38,989 nt of DNA from a virus: IMG/VR virus record IMGVR_UViG_3300048930_000687; one strand, given 5' to 3'. Positions 2,774-36,735 of the stretch are shown piece by piece. Positions within the stretch are counted from its first letter, which is position 1; every line of letters starts with the position of its first letter. A program made the position numbers and the translations under genes. Below the pieces are notes generated by a model. That model had not been told where the DNA came from and did not search any database. It saw nothing but the letters and a program-made list of their open reading frames with translations.

Positions 2774-4564
2774 TTACCTGGCCTCGTGTACGCGGGTGAT
2801 GAGGGTGCTGTCGGTCTGCTCGTCGGGTTTCAGGGTGTTCACCCAGAAGTCGCGCCGGGAGAGGGTGGTGATGAGGTGAATGTGGTTCTTGGCGCGCGTG
2901 ACGCTCGTGTAGTAGAAACGTCGGGGGCTGAACTTGACGGGTTCGGGTTGGTAGAGGATGACCGTGTCCCAACCTGATCCTTGGGCTTTGTGGACGGTGA
3001 CGCAGTACCCGAGCTGCATGAGGTCCTTGGCGTCCTCGATGGCGATGGTGCGCGTGCCTTCGCCGGGTCCGAAGTCGATGTCGACATCCACACCGTTGCT
3101 GCCGGTGACTTGGCCGGTTTGGCCGTTGAAAACGCCGTATGTGTAGTCGTTGTCGGTGACGAGGACTTTGTCGCCGATGCACACGCCGGCGTCCGGGTAG
3201 TTCCCACGCGAGTCTTTGGCGCTCCAGACGCGGTACGTGAACAGTGGGATGCCGGTCGGGTTGAGGAGGTCTTGGATGTGCTGGTTGAGGGCTTCGCGGG
3301 TGTCGTTCTTCCAGGTGACGACTTGCCATTCGTGATGTGCCAAGCGGGTGCTTGAGTCCCGGATTAGGGCGTTGAAGTCGTTCTCTGCGGCGTCCGGGTC
3401 GATGCCGAACCGCAAGTACACGCCGCGTTCCGGCTCGCTGGGCACGTACGCGTCTGGGGCTTGGGTGCGGATAGCCTCCGCGAACTGGTGGATGCTCACC
3501 TGACCGGCCTGGCGGTAATTGATCTCTAGGTGCACGTGCGGAAGACCGAGCGCCAAGTAGTCCGAGAAGGGCGTGCCGTACCCGATGGGTGGCAGTTGAT
3601 TCGGATCGCCGACAAGTATCAGCGTGCTGGTGGGCAACATGGCCTTGACGACCTTGGCCAGCAGCCAGTTGGGGATCATGCTGGCCTCGTCGAGCACGAC
3701 GATGTCTTCCATGAGGGGGATGGGCACGGTGTTGGGGCCTTGCAGGCCGAGGGCGCGGTGGATGGTGCTGCAGGCGACCCAATCGACGCCGTCCTCACCC
3801 ATGGCTTCTTGGCTGCGCATGGCGGCCTTGCCGGCGAACGCCATGACGCGCATGGTCTTGCGGAGCTTGCGCGCAGCGTGAGCGATGGCGGCAGTGGATT
3901 TCGTCTTGCCCGTGCCGGCCCCGCCCGTGAGGGCCATCAGGCGCGTGCCGCTCAGGGCGGTGCTGACGGCCTGTAACTGGTCCTCGTTGAGCGGTCCGAG
4001 GTCGAGGCTGGAAACGTCGGGTAGGGTGAGTTGTTGGGCGCTGGTGAGCACGTCCTCGAACAGTTCGGCGAGGTCTTGTTCGGCGCGGAGTTCGGACGGT
4101 AGCCAGGCGCGGTCGTGGTCGATCTCGACGCCGGCGAGGCGCAGTTTGGGGTTGCGGAGGTCGGCGCGTTCACGCTGCTTATCGAGTTCCCAGAGCCTGA
4201 GGGGACCGTACTGCTCGAGGATGCTCTGGTTCCCCGCCGCGTGCCGGCGAGGGTGGTCGAGGCCGACGTCGAAGTCGCCAAGGGCGACGGCGTCGGCTTT
4301 CTTCCAGTTGATGCCACGCACGTGCATGAGTTCGTAGGGGTCGAAGCTGATGAGCGCGAGGATCTCGGATTCGCTCAGGTGCTCGTCGCTTGACTTGAAC
4401 AGGTCGGGTTGCGTGAGGAGCTTCGTGAACAGCGTGTCGTGGACGCCGTGTTTGCGCCAGTCGTCGCGCATCTCGTTGTAGTGGCGTTCGATGCGGCTTG
4501 CGAGGCGGCGGCCGATGCCGTGGAGGTCGTAAACGTGCCTGTGGCGGGTGATCGTGGTAGTCAT
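2774..4564 (-). CDS. RecD-like SF1 DNA helicase
   Basis: 596 aa; Walker A GGAGTGKT, Walker B VVLDEASM, C-terminal TVHKAQGSGWD motif typical of RecD/TraA-like helicases; AAGGAG-type RBS before the ATG. Confidence 0.8.
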   Translation of the reverse strand: MTTTITRHRHVYDLHGIGRRLASRIERHYNEMRDDWRKHGVHDTLFTKLLTQPDLFKSSDEHLSESEILALISFDPYELMHVRGINWKKADAVALGDFDVGLDHPRRHAAGNQSILEQYGPLRLWELDKQRERADLRNPKLRLAGVEIDHDRAWLPSELRAEQDLAELFEDVLTSAQQLTLPDVSSLDLGPLNEDQLQAVSTALSGTRLMALTGGAGTGKTKSTAAIAHAARKLRKTMRVMAFAGKAAMRSQEAMGEDGVDWVACSTIHRALGLQGPNTVPIPLMEDIVVLDEASMIPNWLLAKVVKAMLPTSTLILVGDPNQLPPIGYGTPFSDYLALGLPHVHLEINYRQAGQVSIHQFAEAIRTQAPDAYVPSEPERGVYLRFGIDPDAAENDFNALIRDSSTRLAHHEWQVVTWKNDTREALNQHIQDLLNPTGIPLFTYRVWSAKDSRGNYPDAGVCIGDKVLVTDNDYTYGVFNGQTGQVTGSNGVDVDIDFGPGEGTRTIAIEDAKDLMQLGYCVTVHKAQGSGWDTVILYQPEPVKFSPRRFYYTSVTRAKNHIHLITTLSRRDFWVNTLKPDEQTDSTLITRVHEAR

Positions 4565-4662
4565 TTGGTGCTCCTTTGTGACGGTGCTTGCTTGGTTCCG
4601 TACGTGAGGGGCAAGGCCGGGCGTCGAGGTTCAGTCGACGCCCGGTTGCTCGCGTGCGGGGA

Positions 4663-5289
4663 TTAGGTGGGGATGCCTGCCGGGGCCTCGGTCGCGGCGG
4701 CGGTTGGCGGCTTGCGGGTGGTGGGCTTCTTCGGCAGCATCGTGGCCGCTGCCGCCTTCGCGGCGTTGTAGCCCTTCTTGTTGATCGTGAGTTCGAGCAT
4801 GCAGCTCTTGCCGATCAGGTTCTCGCCGTTCACACTCAAGCCGAGTACGTTGCCCTTGACGCCGTCGAAGGTCGTCTCGCCGGTGATGAACCACTTGCCC
4901 TTGACGTGACCCTTCTCCGGGTCGTCCTCCGTGGGCTTGAAGTAGTGGTCGAGCGGCAGGTTGGCGATTACGTCGGTGGCGAGGTCCCAGCCGATCTTGT
5001 CGCCGTCGTCACCGCCGACGAGTTCGCGACCGAGCAGGGCGCAGATGCGGTTGTAGAACTTCGCGCCGTCGTTCGTGCTGACCTTGACGAACTTCTCGGT
5101 CCACGTGAGGTCTTCGCCGAAGTCCCACGTGAACTCGGCGGACTGGTAGCGCAGGCCTTCGCCCTCGTTCTGGTCGTCGGTCATGTATTCCTTGGCCGTG
5201 TCGAGGTAGAGGCTTTTGAGCTTGGCCTCGTAGTTACCTGCTTCGATGGGGGTGTAGGCGCTTTCTTGCTTGCTGGTGGGGAGTGCCAT
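4663..5289 (-). CDS. Hypothetical protein, possibly DUF669-like phage ssDNA-binding protein
   Basis: ORF-track ORF 4663-5298; ATG at residue 4 taken as start; N-terminal PIEAGNYEAK resembles DUF669 N-termini (from memory, unverified). Confidence 0.45.
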   Translation of the reverse strand: MALPTSKQESAYTPIEAGNYEAKLKSLYLDTAKEYMTDDQNEGEGLRYQSAEFTWDFGEDLTWTEKFVKVSTNDGAKFYNRICALLGRELVGGDDGDKIGWDLATDVIANLPLDHYFKPTEDDPEKGHVKGKWFITGETTFDGVKGNVLGLSVNGENLIGKSCMLELTINKKGYNAAKAAAATMLPKKPTTRKPPTAAATEAPAGIPT

Positions 5290-10371: not shown

Positions 10372-10386
10372 AATAGATTGGCGTCC

Positions 10387-11361
10387 ATGACTCAGGTCCT
10401 CAAATCCGCCGTTTCACTCTTCTCGGGGTGCGGCGGGTTCGACTGGGGCGTGAAGAGCGCCGGTGTCGACATCATCTGGGCGAACGACATCGACCCTCAC
10501 GCGGCCGCTGCCTACAAAGCCCTGTTCCCCGAAACCGAGTTCCATCTCGGCGACGTAAGAGACATCGCGACCTTCCCCGAAGCTGACGTTCTCATAGGTT
10601 GCTATCCATGTACGGGCTTCAGTCTCGGCTCACGGCGACGCAACCGCGATGGCGCCGACAGGGACCTCAAAGCGAACGGCGGCAACTATCTGTACGAGGA
10701 ATTCGTCAGGGCCCTATCAGTCGTGCAGCCGGCGGTCTTCTTCATCGAGAACGTCGGTGGCATGACCACTGCGTCTGACGGTTGGTTTTTCGAGAAGCAG
10801 TTGACCGAGTTCAGGCGCCAAGGATACGTCGTCAACCACAAGGTCCTAGACGCGTCAAGTTTCGGAGCAGCACAGACCCGCAAGCGACTCTTCATCGTCG
10901 GCGTCAAGCAAGAACTCGGCACAAGCTTCACTTTCCCCGAACCCACACATGGTCAGGCTGACGACCTGAAGGCACTAGCAAGCCTCCGGTCGGCGCTAAC
11001 AAATGTGAAGACTGATGTTGACACCGAGGTCTTCAACTTCAAGTTTCACGGTCATTACCTGACGAGAAACCGGAAACGCCCATGGGAAAGCCCCAGTTAC
11101 ACCATTGTCGCTAACGCACACCACGTTCCCCTCCACCCGTCCGGTGAACCAATGCGCCGCGTTGGAGTGGATCATTGGGAGCTCCAGGGCGACGTGAACC
11201 GTCGGCTCTCATGGCGCGAATGTGCCGCAATACAAGGCCTTCCCCCACAAGTAGCGCCGTCGGGAACACTGCTCGACAAGTACAGGGTCGTAGGCAACGC
11301 AGTACCTCCCGTTTTCGGGAAGACCTTGATGGAAGAGGCCACAGCACAGTTCGGCAGTTGA
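10387..11361 (+). CDS. DNA (cytosine-5)-methyltransferase
   Basis: C5-MTase motifs: FSGCGG (I), GCYPCTGFS (IV, catalytic Cys), FFIENV (VI), QTRKRLFIVG (VIII), GNAVPP (X); start could be TTG at 10378. Confidence 0.9.
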   Translation: MTQVLKSAVSLFSGCGGFDWGVKSAGVDIIWANDIDPHAAAAYKALFPETEFHLGDVRDIATFPEADVLIGCYPCTGFSLGSRRRNRDGADRDLKANGGNYLYEEFVRALSVVQPAVFFIENVGGMTTASDGWFFEKQLTEFRRQGYVVNHKVLDASSFGAAQTRKRLFIVGVKQELGTSFTFPEPTHGQADDLKALASLRSALTNVKTDVDTEVFNFKFHGHYLTRNRKRPWESPSYTIVANAHHVPLHPSGEPMRRVGVDHWELQGDVNRRLSWRECAAIQGLPPQVAPSGTLLDKYRVVGNAVPPVFGKTLMEEATAQFGS

Positions 11362-11444: not shown

Positions 11445-11546
11445 ATGACCAGCAGAGTATGTATAGACGGTGAGGGCACCAATCGTTTACTTGACGGTCG
11501 GTTGACTCGCGTCACCGTCGGTTTGGTCCCGGACGATGTCCCGTAA
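11445..11546 (+). CDS. Small upstream ORF (33 aa) overlapping the integrase start
   Basis: ATG preceded by GGGGAGGAATA; my translation MTSRVCIDGEGTNRLLDGRLTRVTVGLVPDDVP; stop lies 8 nt inside int. Confidence 0.3.
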   Translation: MTSRVCIDGEGTNRLLDGRLTRVTVGLVPDDVP

Positions 11547-12831
11547 GCGCAATCGTCGCGCGCCGGGCGAGGGCGCCATCTACGAACGCCCCGACCGCGG
11601 CACCTGGGTGGCGGCCATCGTGATCGCCTTCGACGAGCACGGACGCCCAATCAGACGCACGAAGACCACGCGCACGAAGACCGAAGCCATGGCCTGGCTC
11701 ACCGCCCAGCAGGCAGCGCTCAACAGCGGCTTGAAGCTCGGGGAGAACGCGACCCTGCAGGAGGTCGTCGACGAGTGGATGGCCGCCGGCCAAGCCCTGC
11801 GCGGCTGGGGTACCAGCACCGTGACGTCATACCGAGCCACCATCGCGAAGATCCTCCCACGCCTCGGACGCATGCGGGCCCGCGACCTCGACCCAGCCCT
11901 CATCGAGCGAACCCTCCTCGACCTCACCCGCAACGGCGCCTCACCCGCCATGGTGGCTCGCGTCCGCAGCCACCTGGCCATGGCCTTGAGGTACGCACTA
12001 CGCAAGCGCCTAATCGAGCGCGACCCGATGCTTGGCGTGGACGCACCGACCACACCGGCTCCACAGATCCAACGATGGAGCGAGGCGGAGGCCGGCAGGA
12101 TCGTCCGCGAATGCCTCGACCGGGACGACCAGACCGCCAGGTACGTGCTGGTGGCACTCGGCACCGGTCTCCGAACGGAGGAACTGCTGGGTCTCGCCTG
12201 GTCGAGCGTTGACCTCGAGGAGCGCATCCTGCTTGTCGAGCGCGTGGCGATCGAGGTCGCCGGCAGGAAGGAGCTCCGGGCGGGCGGCAAGACCGAAGCC
12301 GCCAACCGCCCGGTGCCGATCGACGAGCTGACAGCCGCAGCCCTGGCGCGGCAGGCCGAGCATGTGGAGCACTTGCGCGGCGCCCGGGCGCACCTGGATG
12401 CCAAGCGGGTCGCCGAGGGCCTCCAGTCGCTCGGCTGGGCTGATCTCGACCTGGTGTTCCCGTCGTCGGTCGGAACGGTCGTGAGCCGCAAGACGCTCCG
12501 GGCCGGGTTCGGCGATCTGCAGGAGCGCACGGGCGTGACGCGCATCAAGCTCTACGCCACGCGATCCACGCACGGGAGTCTGTTGGCCGATGCGGGAGTC
12601 AACCTGCACGCGCTGGCCGAGCGCATGGGGCACGCCGACCGGCGTTACCTGGCCAAGAAGTACCTGCGGGGAAGCACGTCGGCGCACCGCGCAGTCGCCG
12701 AGCAGATAGGGCAGATCCTTGGTAGCACGCTGGTAGCAGGAGCCTCTCCGGAGAGCGTCTCGGAAGGTCACGAACCGGCAGGAGAGGGAGCGCGGAACAC
12801 GCGGGAAGTGCGACGGGAGGCCAGTAATTGA
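11536..12831 (+). CDS. int: Tyrosine-type site-specific integrase
   Basis: 431 aa; N-terminal arm-binding-like region, core with GLRTEELLGLAW, C-terminal HGSLL / MGHADRRYLAKKY consistent with the R-H-R-Y catalytic arrangement; followed by a tRNA 3' fragment. Confidence 0.9.
   Translation: MSRKRNRRAPGEGAIYERPDRGTWVAAIVIAFDEHGRPIRRTKTTRTKTEAMAWLTAQQAALNSGLKLGENATLQEVVDEWMAAGQALRGWGTSTVTSYRATIAKILPRLGRMRARDLDPALIERTLLDLTRNGASPAMVARVRSHLAMALRYALRKRLIERDPMLGVDAPTTPAPQIQRWSEAEAGRIVRECLDRDDQTARYVLVALGTGLRTEELLGLAWSSVDLEERILLVERVAIEVAGRKELRAGGKTEAANRPVPIDELTAAALARQAEHVEHLRGARAHLDAKRVAEGLQSLGWADLDLVFPSSVGTVVSRKTLRAGFGDLQERTGVTRIKLYATRSTHGSLLADAGVNLHALAERMGHADRRYLAKKYLRGSTSAHRAVAEQIGQILGSTLVAGASPESVSEGHEPAGEGARNTREVRREASN
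12721..12744. repeat. Direct repeat copy A (GGTAGCACGCTGGTAGCAGGA), candidate integrase arm-type site
   Basis: 19 of 21 positions identical to copy at 12969-12992; contains GGTAGCA twice 11 bp apart. Confidence 0.4.
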
Positions 12832-13100: not shown

Positions 13101-13301
13101 ATGTCCAACAAGACCCAGGTCATCACTTCGGGCATGCTTCGCTCGCTAGACACCTTCGGCGCAGGACGCCAAGATCAGAGAATCATTGAAGAGTCCAAGA
13201 CCCTCAGCTCCACCACCCCGCGGGAGCAGATGCGAGACCGCTGGGTAAGAGTCGGCCAGTATTTGGGGAGGAACGCACGGCTCCTTCACGAGCGTGGCTA
13301 A
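13101..13301 (+). CDS. Hypothetical small protein (66 aa)
   Basis: ATG preceded by GGAGGGAG; visibly lower G+C than phage core genes; track ORF starts at GTG 13068. Confidence 0.4.
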   Translation: MSNKTQVITSGMLRSLDTFGAGRQDQRIIEESKTLSSTTPREQMRDRWVRVGQYLGRNARLLHERG

Positions 13302-13827
13302 GAAGCGCAAGGGCGAACGCCAACCGCGACTTAAACTTCAGCCAACTGGCGAGTTAACAACGCCACCTCCCACCGCAGTTGAGGAAGTCCTTGAGGAGCT
13401 TGAGCCTCGGCAGAAGCAGGTTATCCAAGAGTGGATTTCCTATGCCTTCAGCGGCCCGTTGCCACCACCCAACATCGTCTCTGGCTACGACCAGATCATC
13501 ACCAACGGCGCGGATCGCATCATGGAGATGGCAGAACGTGACCAAGAGCATGTTCATGGCCTTGAGAATGCACATTCGGCTCGACTAGACAGGTTCCTCG
13601 ACAGCGACATTCGGCTCGCTCGTAACGCGCAGTTACTGGGCGGCGTTTTGTTCACCCTGATGATCGTTGCGGCTCTATTATTCGCGTTCCTAGACAAGCT
13701 GCCTGTGGCGCTAGGCACCGTTCTTTCGGCGGGACTGGTCCAAGTTGGGACCTGGTTGCTCAATCGGTATTCAAACCGCCAGCCGACTAAACCCGAACAG
13801 GACAAGGCAGAGCCCAAGGGCAAGTAG
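13294..13827 (+). CDS. DUF2335-like membrane protein
   Basis: Motif LPPPNIVSGYDQIITNGADRIMEMAE resembles DUF2335 (from memory); two C-terminal hydrophobic helices; GTG start overlaps previous ORF. Confidence 0.55.
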   Translation: MAKKRKGERQPRLKLQPTGELTTPPPTAVEEVLEELEPRQKQVIQEWISYAFSGPLPPPNIVSGYDQIITNGADRIMEMAERDQEHVHGLENAHSARLDRFLDSDIRLARNAQLLGGVLFTLMIVAALLFAFLDKLPVALGTVLSAGLVQVGTWLLNRYSNRQPTKPEQDKAEPKGK

Positions 13828-15937: not shown

Positions 15938-15966
15938 ATGGAAAAGCCCCGCCGTGGGGCGGGGCG
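15938..15966 (-). terminator. GC hairpin with T-tract on minus strand, immediately upstream of the endolysin RBS
   Basis: GCCCCGCC-gtgg-GGCGGGGC followed (minus-strand sense) by TTTTCC and then ATTGGAGGT. Confidence 0.4.
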
Positions 15967-27749: not shown

Positions 27750-28742
27750 TTACGGAACGAGGACGCTGAACGGGTAACGCGTCGACGCGTTGTCGTTCAC
27801 GCGGTTGATCGGGTTCGGCACTTGCCATGCCACGCGGAACACCGCGCGCAGCGCAACCATGTCCTGCTGCGCGAGGTTGTACACGATGTTCCCCGCGCCG
27901 TCCTGAATGACCGCCTCGGTGAGAATCTTGTACGTGACGTCCTGCCGGACGGCCCACACGAGTTGGCTCCAGTCGCCGGTGAACATGAGTGCCTGGGCGG
28001 GGTCCATGCTGCCGTTGCGCGGGAAGAACACCGGTTCGCCATCCAGCTCGTACCGGCTGGCGCCCTGAATGTCTTGCCTGTCCGCGCTGCGGTGGAAGAG
28101 GGGAATGCCGCCGGGGACGGCCGTGGAGCCGTTCCAGACTTTCTCCCGTAGCCCACGCAACTGGGCGCGCATGCTCATGGCGGCAACGTGACCGGACGCC
28201 ATGAACCCGTCTTCCTCGATGAGGGCAATCGTGCCGCCTACGCCGATAACGGCGTCGTACAGGTCACCGCCACCACCGACGATGCTGCTGAGGTCGACGG
28301 TGTGACTGGCGCTGGTGGCGGCAGTCAGGATGTCGTCCGGCCAGGCGCTTGGGGCGTTCTCGCCGAACAGGATGGCGCGATCGAAGGTCTTGCCGATGGC
28401 TTCCTCGATGCGGGGCCTGACTTCACCCCAAATGTCGTAGTCGGCGTCATCAAGGACGGCTTCGGAGATGGGGACGATGACGGCGAGTTCTTCCGCGTCG
28501 AGGTACTTGTTTGCCCAGTTCTGCTTGGTGGTGGATTTCATGCCGGTGTCGCCGTCCACGAAGTACGCCTCGGGCAGTACGGAGAGGACGGGGAGGCGGC
28601 GTTGCTTGCGGCTCATGTTCGGGGCGCGTGTGGCGAGTTGCATGATGCTGGACTGTTGCACCATGCCTTGGAGGATTTCGCGGCTGACTTCTTCGGGCAT
28701 GAGTGCCTGCGTGCCGCTACGGTCGATGATGTTCACGGGCAT
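27750..28742 (-). CDS. Major capsid protein
   Basis: 330 aa; follows the scaffold gene in SPP1-like order; composition typical of HK97-fold capsid proteins. Confidence 0.75.
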   Translation of the reverse strand: MPVNIIDRSGTQALMPEEVSREILQGMVQQSSIMQLATRAPNMSRKQRRLPVLSVLPEAYFVDGDTGMKSTTKQNWANKYLDAEELAVIVPISEAVLDDADYDIWGEVRPRIEEAIGKTFDRAILFGENAPSAWPDDILTAATSASHTVDLSSIVGGGGDLYDAVIGVGGTIALIEEDGFMASGHVAAMSMRAQLRGLREKVWNGSTAVPGGIPLFHRSADRQDIQGASRYELDGEPVFFPRNGSMDPAQALMFTGDWSQLVWAVRQDVTYKILTEAVIQDGAGNIVYNLAQQDMVALRAVFRVAWQVPNPINRVNDNASTRYPFSVLVP

Positions 28743-28754
28743 GTCTTGTTCTCC

Positions 28755-29273
28755 TTATTGGCGGCCGGCTGCGTGTCTGATGGCCGCGTTCATGTCGAAT
28801 CCGCGGGTGCCACCGCCACCACCAGTGGTGGGAGCTGGGCCTGGGCGCGGGTCCGGTTGTGGGGCGAGGGTCGGCGTGTCCTTCACGAGCGTCTCGACTT
28901 TGACGTTGCCGTCTTTGTCAACGTACTTGTCGGTGTTCTGCTGCACCTTGTAGAGGGCGTAGTCCACGTCGGTGACGTGTTTGGCGAGTTGGGCGCGCAT
29001 GAGTGCCTCGGTTGTCTCGGCGCGGGCGGCCTCGAGTTGTTTGGCGAGGTCGTCGCGTTCGGCTTGGAGGCGTTCGGTGTCACCGAGTTTGGCGCGGTCC
29101 TCGGCTTTCTTCAGTTCGTCTTGGAGGCGTCGTTCGAAGGCTTTCTCGGCCTTGCTGAGGCGCGCGGTGACCATGCTGTCGAGTTCGGCTTGCGTGAAGG
29201 TCTTGCCGGTGTCTTGGTTGGGGGTTTCCCCGCTGTTGGCCTGCGGGTCGGCGGTTGTGGGATTGTCGGTCAT
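28755..29273 (-). CDS. Scaffolding protein
   Basis: 172 aa, charged coiled-coil sequence (ERRLQDELKKAEDRAKLGDTERLQAERDDLAKQLEAARAE); directly upstream of the capsid gene. Confidence 0.7.
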   Translation of the reverse strand: MTDNPTTADPQANSGETPNQDTGKTFTQAELDSMVTARLSKAEKAFERRLQDELKKAEDRAKLGDTERLQAERDDLAKQLEAARAETTEALMRAQLAKHVTDVDYALYKVQQNTDKYVDKDGNVKVETLVKDTPTLAPQPDPRPGPAPTTGGGGGTRGFDMNAAIRHAAGRQ

Positions 29274-29319: not shown

Positions 29320-29358
29320 GGCCAAAAGAAAACCCCGCCGGGTAGGCGGGGCGGTACT
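29320..29358 (-). terminator. Rho-independent terminator-like hairpin inside the late gene block
   Basis: Minus-strand sense: CCGCCCCGCC-tacccg-GCGGGG followed by TTTTCTTTTGG. Confidence 0.5.
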
Positions 29359-30521: not shown

Positions 30522-31445
30522 CTACGGAGACCATATCGGCTCCGGTGCTTTCGTCAAGCCACGCTGGCGTTCCCACGGCGTCGGCCCCGTCTTGGGCGGC
30601 CCATCAGCTCGCGCCAGGCTCGCGCGGCGGTGCTCGGTCATCCAGTCGTCATCGGTCAATCCCAACTCCCTCCACTCGGGCCGGTATGGGATGGTCGTAC
30701 ATCTACAGTTCGGGTGAAAGGGCAGCTCGATTTCGCCGAGCTTGTAGGCGCGACCCGCGCGACTAGCGCACCATGCGCAGAGGCGGTCATCCATCGTGCA
30801 GAGCACCTGCTCGGCCTCAACGCCGTTCGATCGGAATGTGTCCGTGCGAGACGCTGCGCTGGCGCTCACTGATTCAGTTCGCACGAGCTGCTCAGCCTTC
30901 CACCGTGTAAGACCGGTCTCGCGTCTGAGTTCGGCGGCTGTCCTTCCCCATCCGCGACCACGCACGATGCCGTCGATCACAAGCTCCTCGACCTTGAGCG
31001 CCAACTCACTACCGTGATGCGCGAGCCTCAAGGACGCCTGCGTGGCCCTGGCGGCGACTACTAACCTCGCGTTGCTCGAGAGGCTCACGAGACCCGACTG
31101 GTACGCGCTGAGCATGTCCAACGCGTTCCTGGCGCCAAGGTCGAACGAGTCGCCGATGAGCGCATTGAAGACGCTGTTGGCTTGCGCGCCGCTCGTTAGG
31201 TCGAGCCCGGCTCGGACTTGCTCGAGAAGCATGCGCGCGCGCGCCTCCCGCAAGAGCCGGTTCGGGTTTGCCGCCAGGTCACTTACAGACGCCACGTACA
31301 GGCGCCGCAACTCACGCTCAAGGTTCGCCGCGGCATACCGCAGGGCGCCATCGAGTCGCACGATGGCGTCACGCTCGAGCGCCGACAATGCCCGGTCGAA
31401 GGCACGCACGAGCGCCTCCAACCGGCGACCGTCAACCGTCGCCAT
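30522..31445 (-). CDS. Head morphogenesis protein (Mu F / SPP1 gp7-like minor capsid protein)
   Basis: 307 aa; C-terminal CAWCASRAGRAYKLGEIELPFHPNCRCTTIP signature typical of this family; follows the portal gene. Confidence 0.8.
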   Translation of the reverse strand: MATVDGRRLEALVRAFDRALSALERDAIVRLDGALRYAAANLERELRRLYVASVSDLAANPNRLLREARARMLLEQVRAGLDLTSGAQANSVFNALIGDSFDLGARNALDMLSAYQSGLVSLSSNARLVVAARATQASLRLAHHGSELALKVEELVIDGIVRGRGWGRTAAELRRETGLTRWKAEQLVRTESVSASAASRTDTFRSNGVEAEQVLCTMDDRLCAWCASRAGRAYKLGEIELPFHPNCRCTTIPYRPEWRELGLTDDDWMTEHRRASLARADGPPKTGPTPWERQRGLTKAPEPIWSP

Positions 31446-32773: not shown

Positions 32774-34135
32774 TCACCGGTAGATGCGGCGGGCCGTACT
32801 GAGGTCGGTGGTGCGCTTACCGCCTACTAGCGCCTGGAATAGTGCGGCTAGGGCATCGATGATGTCGTCGTGCGCGTCACCGAGGCCCGTGAACTGGGTT
32901 AGTTCCGATTCGATCTTGGGCGTGAAGTTCGCGTGCTTCGGTAGTAGGATTTCGCCGCGGTTCCAGGCTGTGGCGGCGGGGTAAGCGCGGCTGAGCTTGT
33001 CGGTGGTGGCGGTGATGGCCGTGACCTGAATACCCTCGCGCTTGAGTAGCTCTTCCAACCCGCGTTCGGTGCCGCTGCGGTACCACGTGACGCGAGTTAC
33101 GCCCGCGGCACGCATGAGGGGGATGTAGTGCATTGGTTCGAGGCGGTCGTGGATGAGGTTGGTGACGTAGATTCTGCCGTCAATCAGGCGCCCAGTGATG
33201 GTCACCGTCGCATCACTCGTGGTTTTGGCGGTGTACGCGGCGTCGAAGCCGTGCGCCTCGCGATACGGCTTGTCAGGGAGAGCCTCGTAGTAGGTGGTGT
33301 CCTTGAAGACGCTGGCGCCCGCCTTGACCGGCTCGCACATGTACAGCGCGCTCCAGTCCTCGGGGAGGAGCAGCTCGCGTTGCGCTTCCAGCCACTCTAG
33401 GGGCCGCTCAGCGGGCCACAGGGCGGTGCCGTCGGCGGTGATGGCGGGGAGCTTGATGTACTCCCACTTGCCTGGTTGGGTCTTGAGGAACTGCCCGGTG
33501 GGGTCGTCGAGGTGCCACCTGGTGGCGACGAGGATGACCGAGGCGCCGGGGTGCATGCGCGTGAACGCGGTCGAGGAAAGCCAGCTCATGGCCTTGGTGC
33601 GAATCAGGAGGCTGTTGGCTTCCTCGCGGTCCTTGAGGAGGTCGTCAACTAGGAGCAGGCCGTCAACTGGGCGACCGGTGAGTGGGCCGCCTCTGCTCGT
33701 CCATGCGACTGCGCCGCCGTCCGGCGTCTCCCAACGATCAAGGGTCGAGCGCGTGAGGTTGAGGGCGTGCAGGTCAGCCGCTCGGGACGCGATGCTCGAC
33801 TGGTCGCGCGTGAACGCCTGCGCGTACGTCGCGAACGCATGCCGCAAGCCGGGCCGTTGCAGCATGAGCCACACGAGGCCGTGCAGCACCGTCTCCGATT
33901 TGCCGTGCTGCGGTGGGGTGCTCACCAGCGCCTTGACTTGCTCGCCTGCCGCTATGCGCTCGAACAAGTCAAGCAACGGCGCCAAGTGAGTCGGGGCCAC
34001 TCTGCCGGGGGATTGGCTGATGAAGTCGGCGAGTGACGCAGGTGGCTCGGAGCTAGTTGAGGGCCGAGCGGATTGCCTGAGCTTGTCCGCTCTGCGCTTC
34101 GTGGCCTCGATGCGGTTCAGCATTTGCAGCGCCAC
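32774..34135 (-). CDS. Terminase large subunit
   Basis: 453 aa; Walker A-like PQHGKSE, Walker B-like LLLVDDLLKD, ATRWHLDDPTGQ nuclease region; true start uncertain (overlaps upstream ORF by about 70-80 nt). Confidence 0.85.
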   Translation of the reverse strand: MALQMLNRIEATKRRADKLRQSARPSTSSEPPASLADFISQSPGRVAPTHLAPLLDLFERIAAGEQVKALVSTPPQHGKSETVLHGLVWLMLQRPGLRHAFATYAQAFTRDQSSIASRAADLHALNLTRSTLDRWETPDGGAVAWTSRGGPLTGRPVDGLLLVDDLLKDREEANSLLIRTKAMSWLSSTAFTRMHPGASVILVATRWHLDDPTGQFLKTQPGKWEYIKLPAITADGTALWPAERPLEWLEAQRELLLPEDWSALYMCEPVKAGASVFKDTTYYEALPDKPYREAHGFDAAYTAKTTSDATVTITGRLIDGRIYVTNLIHDRLEPMHYIPLMRAAGVTRVTWYRSGTERGLEELLKREGIQVTAITATTDKLSRAYPAATAWNRGEILLPKHANFTPKIESELTQFTGLGDAHDDIIDALAALFQALVGGKRTTDLSTARRIYR

Positions 34136-34478
34136 TCAGCACCTCCCTCGTGATCTCGACTTCGGAGAGGGCGCGGAACGCTTCGACGACCGCCGCGAGG
34201 CTGTCTTCGGTGGCGGCTAGGGTGCGGATTCTCTCTACGAGTTCGGAGAGCGCTTCGCCGAGGTGGGCGGCCCAGTCCTTGTCGAGGATGTCGTTCAGTC
34301 GTTGCCTGAAAAGCCCTGACAGTTCGGTGTCGGTGTCTAGCGCGGCTTTCCAGCGCCATAGGGTGCGGGTCGTGATGTTGTATGTGTCAGCTATTCGGGT
34401 GGCTTGGGCTTCTCGGAAGTTTTCTTGCGCCCAGTCGGCGAGGGCGCGGGCGGCTTGGTGGTTGTCTCGTTTGGCCAC
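34053..34478 (-). CDS. Terminase small subunit-like HTH protein
   Basis: GTG start preceded by AGAGGAG; N-terminal HTH-like YNITTRTLWRWKAA; first gene of the late operon. Confidence 0.5.
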   Translation of the reverse strand: MAKRDNHQAARALADWAQENFREAQATRIADTYNITTRTLWRWKAALDTDTELSGLFRQRLNDILDKDWAAHLGEALSELVERIRTLAATEDSLAAVVEAFRALSEVEITREVLSGAANAEPHRGHEAQSGQAQAIRSALN

Positions 34479-34501
34479 GATCGCTCCTCTCTTGTTGTGG
34501 T

Positions 34502-34541
34502 GTGACCCGCCCACGGACGTTGCGTGTGGGCGGCGTCACGG
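34502..34541. promoter_or_regulatory. Imperfect palindrome upstream of the late/packaging operon
   Basis: GTGACCCGCCCAC ... GTGGGCGGCGTCAC arms separated by about 11 bp; shares the GTGAC half-site with the iteron region. Confidence 0.4.
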
Positions 34542-34645
34542 CGGTCCGCCTAGCGGGGTGGGGGTTGTGTTTGGGTGCGGGCTGCGAGGAGTCGCGCCTC
34601 GCCCGTCCCGGCTGATGTGGCCGGGCGCACCACTCGGTGCAAGCC

Positions 34646-34682
34646 CGCAAAGGAAACCCCGCCGTGGGGGGACGGCGGGGCT
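34646..34682 (-). terminator. Rho-independent terminator between the early-right operon and the late operon
   Basis: Minus-strand sense: CCCCGCCGT-cccccc-ACGGCGGGG followed by TTTCCTTTG. Confidence 0.55.
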
Positions 34683-34732
34683 CAGAGTCAAATCTACCGG
34701 GTACAAGATAGCACGTCTTGACAATCCCACCC

Positions 34733-35353
34733 CTACTTGGGAGGTTCGATGCCAGCGCGATCGGCGATCGCGAAGACTTCGGTCGGGCGCATGGGGTCCT
34801 GAGAGTCGCGGAGCGCGTCGGCCAACCGCTCCCGGTCTTCCTCGGGGGTGAGTAGGCGCACGTCGGCGAGGCCGGCGAGGGCCGCCAGGAAGTCGGCAAC
34901 GATTGGCGTGATGAGGGCGCGCGGGTCGTGGTTGCGCCTGAGCGTCGGCGTGCCGTGCCGGTTCGTGTCGAGGAGGAACGGCTGTCGGGCACTGCCGTGG
35001 TGCCAGGCGTTCGTCCACTCGACCAGTTCGGTCGTCGTGAGCTGCGCGTGGAGCATGCGGTAGTCGTCCTCGGTGAGGCGCGCGACGAGGATGTGGCCGT
35101 TGCTCGGCCAGTCGTTGGGTTCGATGCGGCCGATGATGCGACCGACGTCGTTGATGGCCTCGAGCTTGGGCGTGGGCGATGGCAGGCCGGAGGCCGTGAC
35201 GTAGCCGCGGGTGCGACCTTGGCCGGTGGGGTCGTGCACGTACCAGTCGGTCACGATCGGCCAGCCGTCGACCAGGGCACGGCGTAGCGGGAGCCAGAGC
35301 GCGTTTGCGGCGGCCCTGTGCAGTTGCGTGAGGGTGTTCACGTTGGCCTCCAC
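34733..35353 (-). CDS. Hypothetical protein (206 aa)
   Basis: ORF-track ORF, GTG start, last gene of the early-right operon. Confidence 0.45.
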   Translation of the reverse strand: MEANVNTLTQLHRAAANALWLPLRRALVDGWPIVTDWYVHDPTGQGRTRGYVTASGLPSPTPKLEAINDVGRIIGRIEPNDWPSNGHILVARLTEDDYRMLHAQLTTTELVEWTNAWHHGSARQPFLLDTNRHGTPTLRRNHDPRALITPIVADFLAALAGLADVRLLTPEEDRERLADALRDSQDPMRPTEVFAIADRAGIEPPK

Positions 35354-35853
35354 AGCTCGCGGCCGTTCTGTCGCCGGTGCTCGTCGAGGCTGGCGAGTGT
35401 CTGCCGGGCGAGGTCGGGTGGCATGCGGGTGAGGATGGCCGCCCAGTCGAGTGGGGGTTCGGTGTCGCGTTGGCTGGGGTCGTCGAGGCGGTCGTAGCGC
35501 GAGCGAGATGCGCGCGTCGTCATGCTCACGCCGAGGACTCTGGCGCGGCCGCGGACGGCGGCGGGTGTGCGGTCAACACCGGCAGCGATGACGGCGGTGA
35601 CGCCGCCATTCGGGTAGTGGGTGTGGAGGAGTTCGTCTTCCTCCGGCGTCCAGGCCATGGAGGTGCCGGTGCCGCGTTTGCAGCCGCAACTGGTGTTGCT
35701 CCCGTTGTGGAGGGAGAAGCCGTGCGTGGTGATGGTGCCGCCGCAGTCGCAGCGGCAGGTGTACCGGGCGCCGTTGCCGGTGCTGGGGGCGGAGTGCAGG
35801 ACGGTGAGGAGCCCGAAGCGGTCGCCGGGGAGGACGCGCAAGGGGCGGCTCAC
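35338..35853 (-). CDS. Cys-cluster protein with Myb/SANT-like WTPEEDELL segment (candidate late-gene regulator)
   Basis: CRCDCGG and CGCK Cys clusters; GTGA coupling with upstream gene. Confidence 0.45.
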   Translation of the reverse strand: MSRPLRVLPGDRFGLLTVLHSAPSTGNGARYTCRCDCGGTITTHGFSLHNGSNTSCGCKRGTGTSMAWTPEEDELLHTHYPNGGVTAVIAAGVDRTPAAVRGRARVLGVSMTTRASRSRYDRLDDPSQRDTEPPLDWAAILTRMPPDLARQTLASLDEHRRQNGRELWRPT

Positions 35854-36167
35854 GGGGTGTCCTCGATGCCGCTGTCGCGCGACGTGATGGGGCTAGGAGC
35901 GCTTGCGGCGCCTTGGGTGGCACTGGACTGCCGGGCCGCGCCTGCTGGGCCTTGTGGGGCGTCCTGCGGGGTCGTGATGATGCGGCTGCGCATCTCCAAC
36001 CGCATGGCCTCCGCCTCCAGGTCGCCGAGGAGGAGCAGCAGGCGCGCGAGGGCGTCAAGCGCCAGGGTGCGCTCCCACCCGACCTGCGCCGCGACCAGGT
36101 CGTCGAGGCGACGGTGCATCTCCTTGGCGACCGCCGTTCGGCGTTCGGGGATGCTCGCAGGCGTCAC
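35850..36167 (-). CDS. Hypothetical protein
   Basis: GTG start with GGAGG RBS and GTGA coupling, inside track ORF 35850-36308. Confidence 0.4.
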   Translation of the reverse strand: MTPASIPERRTAVAKEMHRRLDDLVAAQVGWERTLALDALARLLLLLGDLEAEAMRLEMRSRIITTPQDAPQGPAGAARQSSATQGAASAPSPITSRDSGIEDTP

Positions 36168-36391
36168 GGCGCTGCCTCCGTGGCATCCTGCGAGCCTGTG
36201 GCGAGTTGGTCTCGAATCTCCCCGAACGCTCCTCGCCAGGTCGAGTACGTGTTGCTGACTTGCCGGCGTTCCCGTAACACCCCGAACGCGCGCTGGTAGA
36301 CGCGCCATTCATCACTCCCGTCCTTGGCGAGGTCCCGGTCGAGCCACATGCCGTGCGCGGCCAGGACGGTCTGCGCCTCCCACAGCGTCAC
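36164..36391 (-). CDS. Hypothetical protein (75 aa)
   Basis: GTG start overlapping the RusA stop (GTGA), inside track ORF 36164-36622. Confidence 0.4.
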   Translation of the reverse strand: MTLWEAQTVLAAHGMWLDRDLAKDGSDEWRVYQRAFGVLRERRQVSNTYSTWRGAFGEIRDQLATGSQDATEAAP

Positions 36392-36735
36392 GAGAGCGCC
36401 TCCACCGTCACGAGCACGCGCCCGGGCGCCTCGGGGTAGGCGCGGATGATGCTCAGCTCGTCGATCTGGCTGTCGTCGTCGAAGATGCACGCGAACGTGA
36501 GGGCGTCCAGGATGCCCTTGTGCAGGTTGTCCAGGTCGCGTCTCCTTCGGTCGGGTGGGTAGGCGATGACGCTCACGCGCACCCTGGCAGGGCCGAGGCG
36601 CGGGGCGGACTGCTCCAGGCATGCGGCGATGGCCGCACCGCGGTACTCGCGAGCTTTAGCGCTCAGGACCGTGCGGCTGCCCACGCGCCGCCAGTACGTG
36701 TTCACACTCGGCGGGAACGGCAGGGTCAGGGTCAC
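36388..36735 (-). CDS. rusA: RusA-family Holliday junction resolvase
   Basis: Motifs PPSVNTYW and DLDNLHKGILDAL characteristic of RusA; GTG start with GGGGAGG RBS. Confidence 0.85.
   Translation of the reverse strand: MTLTLPFPPSVNTYWRRVGSRTVLSAKAREYRGAAIAACLEQSAPRLGPARVRVSVIAYPPDRRRRDLDNLHKGILDALTFACIFDDDSQIDELSIIRAYPEAPGRVLVTVEALS

Follow-up and report, generated by a model that had tools for sequence, protein, structure and literature searches.

What turns on the late genes of a phage when a strong terminator stands directly in front of them? The question is raised by IMG/VR virus record IMGVR_UViG_3300048930_000687, a stretch of 38,989 nucleotides (nt) with a G+C content of 64%, referred to in the following as the window, which looks like the circularly permuted, complete genome of a temperate phage of ~39 kb. 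On its minus strand, the early-right operon ends in an open reading frame (ORF) of 202 amino acids, p202, and a 254-nt gap separates the p202 stop codon (34733-34735) from the GTG start of terS, the first late gene. A first-pass annotation had placed a terminator in this gap and had suggested that a protein with cysteine clusters and a Myb-like segment, encoded two genes upstream, regulates the late genes in an arrangement like the lambdoid rusA-Q-tR' layout. We found that the gap holds a promoter-like element (P_late), the terminator (T1) and a tRNA-like cloverleaf RNA, the first and last of which had been overlooked. The sequence is consistent with a late-operon control region that works by Q-like processive antitermination, a reading to which we give about an even chance.

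T1 lies on the minus strand at 34649-34683 and has the form GAG-CCCCGCCGT-CCCCCC-ACGGCGGGG-UUUCCUUU, with the stem at 34657-34680 and the U-tract at 34649-34656. The stem consists of 9 G+C base pairs (12 with an A/U extension), the loop is the 6-nt CCCCCC and the tail is UUUCCUUU; the upstream GAG is able to pair with the first UUU. The folding energy is -23.2 kcal/mol, and on the plus strand no T-tract follows the hairpin. The minus-strand terminator placed by the first-pass annotation at 34646-34682 was thus borne out. A simple terminator scan detected T1, yet it returned 4 sites versus 6.1 expected in shuffled sequence, and with its high G+C content the region gives an energy z-score of only -1.9. 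Since neither value is remarkable, the significance of T1 is drawn from its conservation.

Conservation was assessed on ~16 distinct phage contigs (designated L with a number; from SRA/ENA assemblies such as SRR13773855, ERZ2606016 and SRR16798011), which were reached through relatives of the cysteine-cluster protein, relatives of p202 and DNA patterns; the sample is therefore protein- and pattern-seeded and not an unbiased survey starting from the cassette of promoter, terminator and RNA. The T1 hairpin occurs at the same place in ~15/16 of these loci and the U-rich tail is kept in ~15. Its stem varies in a compensatory manner, as CCCCGCC/GGCGGGG, as CCCCACCGC/GCGGTGGGG in L009 and L011, and as CCCCCCGGG/CCCGGGGGG in L047. 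In the 10-12 kb relatives L007 and L038, T1 is the top-ranked terminator on the coding strand.

Upstream of T1, between it and p202, P_late appears as an extended -10 element, TGCTATCTT (TGC-TATCTT), at 34705-34713 on the minus strand. The sequence TGNTANNNT is present in three copies on the 39-kb minus strand, one of them at P_late, and all 15 loci with upstream sequence carry TG-N-TA-NNN-T or TA-NNN-T at the same place. In L061, the promoter has a canonical -35 element, TTGACC, a 17-bp spacer and TGCTAGGGT, by which P_late looks constitutive. In the window, the -35 position is occupied by a conserved box, GGGTGGGATT (34723-34732, minus strand), directly 3' of the p202 stop codon. The window, L007, L010, L038, L040 and L041 have the form G(G/T)GTGGGATT after this codon, and L009 and L011 keep GGGATT. 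The box has one exact copy in the window, near-matches to it are not enriched overall, and it may be a binding site for a regulator. The initial transcribed region (34684-34704, minus strand) contains a -10-like TAGATT (34691-34696) and a conserved TGAC (34687-34690), which starts 14-15 nt past the -10 hexamer in nearly all loci.

Because this promoter lies upstream of T1, the terminator is not a simple boundary: the claim that it separates the early-right from the late operon is correct as far as it goes, but T1 also stands in the path of P_late. T1 starts 24 nt after the -10 hexamer, so a transcript from P_late would end after ~50 nt. No sigma-70/sigma-A-type promoter for the late genes was found downstream of T1, and no TANNNT hexamer occurs between T1 and terS in the window, L010, L011, L038, L041 or L046. 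With no -10-like element in this interval, all late transcripts, whether from P_late or from the early operon, must traverse T1.

That T1 acts as a regulated barrier is argued most strongly, at the level of sequence, by what lies directly behind it. In two relatives, a tRNA-Ser(GCU) recognized by both ARAGORN and Rfam stands at the end of the T1 U-tract (L011:4519-4606 and L040:2149-2242), and in L061 a transfer-messenger RNA (tmRNA; L061:1017-1287, Rfam RF00023, 93 bits, E=4e-35), with a tag peptide predicted by ARAGORN as GTALTGNILNFPKLNQSTPQALAA, follows directly after T1, upstream of terL. As these genes begin where the U-tract ends, there is no space for a separate promoter in any of the three loci, and the tRNA-Ser or tmRNA can be transcribed only by read-through of T1. 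Behind the tRNA-Ser of L040 come, in this order, a perfect terminator, a small ORF, a CAU cloverleaf, a third terminator-like hairpin and terS, so that three successive terminator-like hairpins separate promoter and terS. The window has another strong intrinsic terminator of the T1 stem family in the interior of the late operon, GCCCCGCC-TACCC-GGCGGGGT-UUUCUUUUGG, at 29322-29352 on the minus strand. A small gene precedes it, and the ORFs at 28755-29273 and 27750-28742 follow; from their position alone we assume these two to be the scaffold and capsid genes, and no obvious promoter comes after the terminator. Both the three hairpins of L040 and this second terminator support a need for processivity in whatever carries RNA polymerase through T1.

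Promoter, terminator and tRNA-type RNA recur jointly in ~15 related contigs, paired with at least three terminase types and head modules. A helix-turn-helix (HTH)-type terS and a Terminase_6N-type terL lie behind the cassette in the window and L007; a Terminase_2-type terS with other terL, portal and capsid sets in L009, L010, L011 and L038; and ParB-like and ATPase genes in L049. Because it precedes different packaging modules, we take the cassette to be a regulatory module that is mobile, rather than a site of packaging. A cos or pac site as the cause of the conserved leader was rejected, since terminases of different families stand behind one and the same leader and TerL belongs to the Terminase_6N type, typical of headful packaging. 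A phage attachment site (attP) was also rejected, the integrase being 22 kb distant. Scanning for the DNA pattern CCGCACGTCACCGCCCCC returned only L014, a chance match in a coding region, and a combined promoter and T1 pattern found in the JGI metagenomes only the L038 phage again and an unrelated low-GC promoter, L052.

In the window, the slot behind T1 is filled by the cloverleaf RNA, which spans 76 nt (34573-34648, minus strand) and whose first base follows the T1 U-tract. Its acceptor stem has 7 bp, its "D" stem 5 bp with a loop of only 4 nt, and its anticodon and T stems 6 bp each; the anticodon loop is CACAUCA, with an invariant CAU, the T loop is CGCGACU and the 3' tail is ACCCA. Minimum free energy folding gave the four-arm cloverleaf, unguided, in most copies. 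A covariance model scored the window copy at 88 bits (E=4e-16), the copies in the window, L007, L009, L010, L038, L040 and L041 at 70-88 bits, and the diverged copies in L062, L060 and L061 at 52, 45 and 29 bits, respectively. Because the acceptor and T stems came out of register when aligned by MAFFT or the covariance model, a manual structural alignment was used instead. In this 10-sequence alignment, hand-fitted to the structure and padded with N, 98.2% of the cells were paired and 14 of 24 pairs showed compensatory double changes; none of 500 column shuffles reached this level, and sliding the 3' partners gave at most 46% pairing. Among the unpaired bases that do not vary are the anticodon-loop CAU and the A.CC in the 3' tail.

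The RNA shares with canonical tRNA (RF00005) the four-arm cloverleaf, a 7-nt anticodon loop with CAU, the T arm and an ACC(C)A tail. It differs in its D loop, which has 3-4 nt and lacks G18/G19 (7-11 nt in canonical tRNA), in position 55, which is G in most copies, in position 33, which is A, C or U (canonically U), and in position 37, which is C in the window (canonically a purine). Judged by these features, it is not a canonical tRNA. In neither the window nor L007-L010 did ARAGORN call a tRNA. For the window, Rfam returned nothing at the gathering threshold and only noise at E<=10, where the tRNA model had no match either. The copies in L060 and L062 are labeled tRNA-Met by ARAGORN, and both are under the Rfam gathering score. 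In two further loci (L047:5650-5790 and L059:4975-5045), longer or shorter RNAs, reduced to acceptor stem, T arm and ACCA tail, could be seen by eye after the terminator, for example GGCCAG-TGAGACT-CTGGCC-GCCGGC-ACCA; no tool detects them, and they may be degenerate tmRNA- or tRNA-like domains. The rest of the terS leader (34479-34572, minus strand) contains a ribosome-binding site, AGGAG, and overlapping, mutually exclusive G+C hairpins, GGCGG..CCGCC and CCGCCCAC..GTGGGCGG. The hairpin here is related but variable in L007-L011, absent from L038 and terminator-like in L040.

Which protein might carry RNA polymerase through T1? The gene in the position of a regulator is p202 itself (34733-35341, minus strand), the last early gene, whose GTG start overlaps the stop codon of the preceding gene. 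Its uncharacterised family comprises 83 clusters at 50% identity and carries the signature PF-x4-NRHG-x-P-x-LRRN. The family has no match in Pfam, PHROGs, PADLOC or the PDB sequences. The predicted structure of p202 is of fair quality (predicted local distance difference test, pLDDT, 79), and a Foldseek search with it against PDB and BFVD gave no match; tblastn with p202 returned nothing. By hhalign, the p202 profile has a probability of at most 0.3% against Q-lambda and phage L gp23. Neither p202 nor the cysteine-cluster protein has a Pfam match to the Antiterm (Q-lambda) or Q21/Q82 families at E<=0.1, and no Pfam or PHROGs match to RinA, ArpU, LtrC or another activator family was obtained for p202, the cysteine-cluster protein or 76 members of the p202 family.

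The case for p202 comes from its position. A member of the family lies beside or near the cassette in every locus with upstream sequence; this adjacency holds by construction in the loci found with p202-family queries, but does not depend on the query in L007, L009, L010 and L011, to which the cysteine-cluster protein had led. The p202 subtype shifts with the promoter subtype (for example, a 190-residue variant in L009 and L011), whereas the cysteine-cluster protein is 82-89% identical across the same loci despite their differing promoter subtypes. We therefore rank p202 as the main candidate for a late regulator, ahead of the cysteine-cluster protein, with which it might act together. The small proteins encoded directly upstream of p202-family genes often share a motif, RPKR-V-T-D-A-L-H-A-L-A-E...EY..R..IL, and occur with or without a Myb-like domain (L038:4588-4986, L041:4699-4989, L059:3047-3253, L060:3261-3461 and L010:6513-7055); they are a second recurring neighbor of the family.

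The cysteine-cluster protein, referred to in the following as the Cys-Myb protein, is encoded at 35338-35853 on the minus strand. It has 171 residues, is basic (isoelectric point, pI, 9.3) and combines a zinc ribbon (residues ~6-62) with an HTH segment (~64-122). The ORF is real and conserved, with 73-94% identity to 7 relatives, and it is the second gene before the hairpin, as first described. The zinc ribbon follows the pattern CxC-x18-CxC, in which C35, C37, C56 and C58 are invariant; C33, the first cysteine of the CRCDCGG cluster described earlier, is not a ligand, because tyrosine replaces it in the relative P0001.

The Myb-like segment likewise stands as a weak similarity to Myb and GcrA at residues 64-122, with every sequence score below the curated thresholds. 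Seven of the eight members of the protein group match Pfam Myb with E=0.02-0.055, and residues 64-122 match GcrA with E=0.015, MYB3 in PDB with E=0.12 and PHROG 323 with E=4e-7; the scores are 14 versus a gathering score of 24.4 bits for Myb (PF00249) and 16.1 versus 26.9 bits for GcrA (PF07750). The segment carries the helix signature W-T-P-E-E-D-x-L-L and aligns with positions 1-56 of the GcrA profile and with MYB3, so that a Myb/SANT-like or GcrA-N-like fold is plausible. The protein differs from GcrA in lacking its sigma-interacting C-terminal domain, and from both the GcrA and Myb families in its N-terminal CxC...CxC zinc ribbon. The AlphaFold model was unusable (pLDDT 43). No close relative was found in IMG/VR or GTDB genomes; a GTDB scan gave only GcrA-like matches to residues 64-123.

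As a late-gene regulator, the role first suggested for it, the Cys-Myb protein is unproven and partly undermined. It is the only candidate with a recognizable DNA-binding domain. Its hhalign probability against Q-lambda and Q21-type proteins is 0.1%, however, and the full two-domain protein is missing from about half of the cassette-carrying loci, being present in none of the 11 distinct loci found via p202-family relatives (L038, L040, L041, L046, L047 and others). In its favor, a homologous Myb-like domain without the zinc ribbon is encoded directly upstream of the p202-family gene in L061 (hhalign probability 84%) and L045 (72%), two diverged loci in which p202 is only ~31-33% identical. 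The Cys-Myb protein stays the second candidate after p202, and a candidate DNA-binding partner in late control.

Read as a Q-like switch, the region might work as follows. P_late would fire constitutively and give a terminated RNA of ~50 nt, T1 beginning ~17 nt into the predicted transcript. As the product of a distal early gene accumulates, it would engage RNA polymerase near the promoter and render it resistant to termination; the likeliest factor would be p202, possibly brought to the DNA by the Cys-Myb protein. The modified polymerase would have to pass not only T1 but also the second strong terminator at 29.3 kb. The tRNA-like RNA would be made only after read-through, as would the tRNA-Ser and tmRNA in the same slot of the relatives, and tRNA-processing enzymes would excise it, freeing the leader from the late mRNA. 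On a more specific and decidedly tentative proposal, the p202 family would represent a new class of promoter-loaded processive antiterminators, equivalent but not homologous to Q and targeted by a Myb-like protein in part of the lineage, and the CAU cloverleaf without a D loop a new phage RNA family, forming an antitermination-dependent part of the leader as a processing signal or as a specialized or decoy tRNA.

Several observations weigh against antitermination. A sigma-dependent pause element does not occur consistently: among the first 10 loci examined, the transcribed leader retains a TAnnnT hexamer in only 3. p202 is mildly acidic (pI 6.0), without a recognizable nucleic-acid-binding motif, and its co-variation with the promoter could stem from physical linkage rather than function. 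P_late and T1 are themselves predictions from sequence. The T1 U-tract is interrupted (UUUCCUUU) and may leak, and L045 keeps promoter and leader but has no T1, which better fits promoter activation. The main rival explanation builds on these last points. P_late would be a weak promoter without a -35 element, and an activator (the Cys-Myb protein, p202 or both) would bind at the GGGTGGGATT box; T1 would end the early-right transcripts and trim the late ones by partial termination, with RNA polymerase unmodified. The window-type -35 position, GGGTGG or GGTGTG, is unlike TTGACA yet conserved, and the Cys-Myb protein is basic with DNA-binding-type domains. Extended -10 promoters, however, work without a -35 element, and L061 has a canonical -35 together with an extended -10 and still keeps T1. 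A hairpin retained with compensatory changes in ~15/16 loci would be costly if it merely lowered late expression; further strong terminators lie downstream, and p202 and the Cys-Myb protein match none of the activator families searched. Activator control just upstream of terS is the rule in Gram-positive phages (PMC3753634), where RinA, ArpU and LtrC likewise are encoded immediately upstream of terS and control the packaging, morphogenesis and lysis operon; these proteins are promoter activators that act without a leader terminator, and they have no sequence match here. On balance, we consider activation with attenuation unlikely.

Read-through might also require none of the neighboring proteins and depend instead on a put-like RNA, an alternative fold of the leader, or the rate of transcription and translation in the early operon. 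The put RNAs of phage HK022 are a precedent for cis-acting RNA antitermination, the leader is conserved, with a fixed spacing between the -10 hexamer and TGAC, and it includes a strongly structured RNA. That RNA, however, lies downstream of T1 and is unable to prevent T1 from forming, and relatives have an ordinary tRNA-Ser or tmRNA in its place. Only ~17 nt precede T1; an anti-terminator fold in this segment was rejected, as it offers no complementary G-rich sequence to compete with the terminator stem. We regard a protein-free mechanism as highly improbable. A last alternative concerns only the Cys-Myb protein, which could be left over from, or accessory to, a mobile gene of the nuclease type, or could serve as a general DNA-binding protein in a nin-like region, with its proximity to the terminator incidental. 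Some 100 phage records contain its zinc-ribbon module, joined to HNH, helicase or various other partners, and its N-terminal domain matches the PHROG 374 "HNH endonuclease" profile, at positions 195-252 of 617 only; with this partial alignment and no Pfam HNH match, the protein does not appear to be an HNH endonuclease itself. Distant two-domain relatives, gp28 of Clostridium phage phiCDHM11 and NVP1042O_57 of Vibrio phage 1.042.O, are not beside terminase genes, and their genomic context is uninformative. Other genes follow the Cys-Myb gene in L005 and L012, and in L010 two genes separate it from p202. Against an incidental position stand the translational coupling of the gene to p202 and the Myb-like domain upstream of the p202-family gene in L061 and L045, and we find this alternative distinctly unlikely.

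The proposed antitermination switch can be compared with that of lambdoid phages, and above all with Salmonella phage L, in which the annotated order is rusA, ninH, ninZ, the Q21-type gp23, a terminator, an abutting tRNA-Asn, tRNA-Leu, a terminator and holin (PMC8022706). In the P22-like layout, the early-right operon ends in the antiterminator gene, unrelated types of Q number at least five, and tRNAs are found at the 5' end of the late operon in several P22-like phages (PMC8022706); the logic by which Q is loaded has been described (bioRxiv 10.1101/651190). The window shares with these systems a rusA gene followed by tightly overlapping small genes, a gene in the regulator position at the end of the early-right operon, a late promoter at or just past the last early gene, an intrinsic terminator at most ~50 nt from the start, a tRNA-type gene abutting the terminator and more terminators inside the late operon. 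It differs in that neither p202 nor the Cys-Myb protein is homologous to Q-lambda or Q21-type proteins, in that it shows no clear tandem Q-binding repeat or sigma-dependent pause element, and in that the late genes begin with terminase and not with lysis genes. The lambdoid layout recognized in the first-pass annotation is thus matched element for element in the DNA architecture of phage L, but not by Q homology. Since membership in a Q family fails by sequence, and Q-binding and pause elements are not demonstrable, the system may be said to work like Q, not to be a Q.

A two-protein scheme also has a parallel in GafY and GafZ of the Caulobacter gene transfer agent, in which a DNA-binding component and a partner drive terminator read-through across a long head-tail cluster. 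The possible pair of Cys-Myb protein and p202 resembles it; the pairing here is only positional and is absent from half of the loci. Q-type antitermination is a textbook mechanism that, to our knowledge, was worked out almost entirely in enterobacterial lambdoid phages. The same promoter-terminator-tRNA layout in an unrelated, uncultured high-GC lineage, portable across packaging modules and adjacent to proteins that match nothing known, points to convergent or very ancient reuse. It provides concrete candidates for a new antiterminator class and adds an RNA family absent from Rfam. The slot behind the leader terminator gathers tRNA-type genes (tRNA-Ser, tmRNA and the CAU cloverleaf), as it does in Stx and P22-like phages.

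The remaining distal early genes begin with a RusA Holliday-junction resolvase (36388-36735, minus strand; Pfam PF05866, E=9.4e-18; PHROG 34, E=6.5e-40), which confirms the rusA part of the proposed lambdoid layout upstream of the Cys-Myb gene (Pfam RusA, E=9e-18). It is the first gene of a translationally coupled chain in which RusA, a 75-residue ORF (p75; 36164-36391, minus strand), a 105-residue ORF (p105; 35850-36167, minus strand), the Cys-Myb protein and p202 are joined by four GTGA stop/start overlaps, p75 and p105 being overlapped at both ends. This matches the lambdoid nin region, which is packed by ATGA overlaps (PMC8022706). Genes for 75 or 79 residues are called at the p75 position in L007, L010 and L011, and one for 105 residues at the p105 position in L005, L007, L009 and L010. 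p75 has no family match in Pfam, PHROGs or PADLOC, and a role of the region in defence was rejected, with zero PADLOC matches. Among the distal early genes of relatives are adenine methyltransferase genes, Dam-like and D12-class (L005:6519-7007; L041:1681-2130 and 3698-4702), and the one in L005 adjoins the Cys-Myb gene. The late promoters did not share a GANTC or GATC site consistently, and GANTC methylation as a GcrA-type target was rejected, such sites being present in some promoters only.

The phage as a whole is an uncultured, high-GC phage unrelated to enterobacterial lambdoids. Its TerL is at most 31% identical to that of any of 50,697 phage records, and among the matching records, phages of Microbacterium, Mycobacterium and Gordonia form the largest groups. 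A blastn search of 33.5-37.5 kb against the same records gave a single 141-nt match, at chance level; the contig of one relative carries the source label of a Trueperaceae metagenome-assembled genome. Replication genes on the minus strand encode a RepB-primase-like protein of 914 residues (19-2763) and a RecD-like helicase (2774-4564). The lysogeny and accessory block, on the plus strand, includes a tyrosine integrase (11536-12831) and a C5 cytosine methylase (10378-11361), the latter in a stretch of lower G+C content (57% at 8-11 kb); a DUF2335 protein is encoded at 13294-13827. The late block occupies the minus strand from terS (34478) through terL, portal and MuF down to ~14.4 kb. The small terminase candidate terS (34053-34478, minus strand; 141 residues) is of the HTH type, with weak HTH matches, and adjoins terL on its upstream side; its GTG start at 34478 is fixed by homologs that begin VAKRDN. 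The large terminase terL (32774-34135, minus strand) matches Pfam Terminase_6N (E=1e-10) and PHROG 38 (E=1e-57).

Two minor observations were made within the late block. A third terminator of the T1 stem family, GCCCCGCC-CCAC-GGCGGGGC-UUUUCCAUUG, lies at 15946-15965 on the minus strand, near the end of the late/lysis region. The sole sigma-70-type -35/-10 match of the late region (TTGACG, 16 bp, TATGGT) is at 30530-30557 on the minus strand, with a copy of TGNTANNNT ~20 nt further downstream, where the MuF-like gene ends, and from this sequence it may be an internal promoter.

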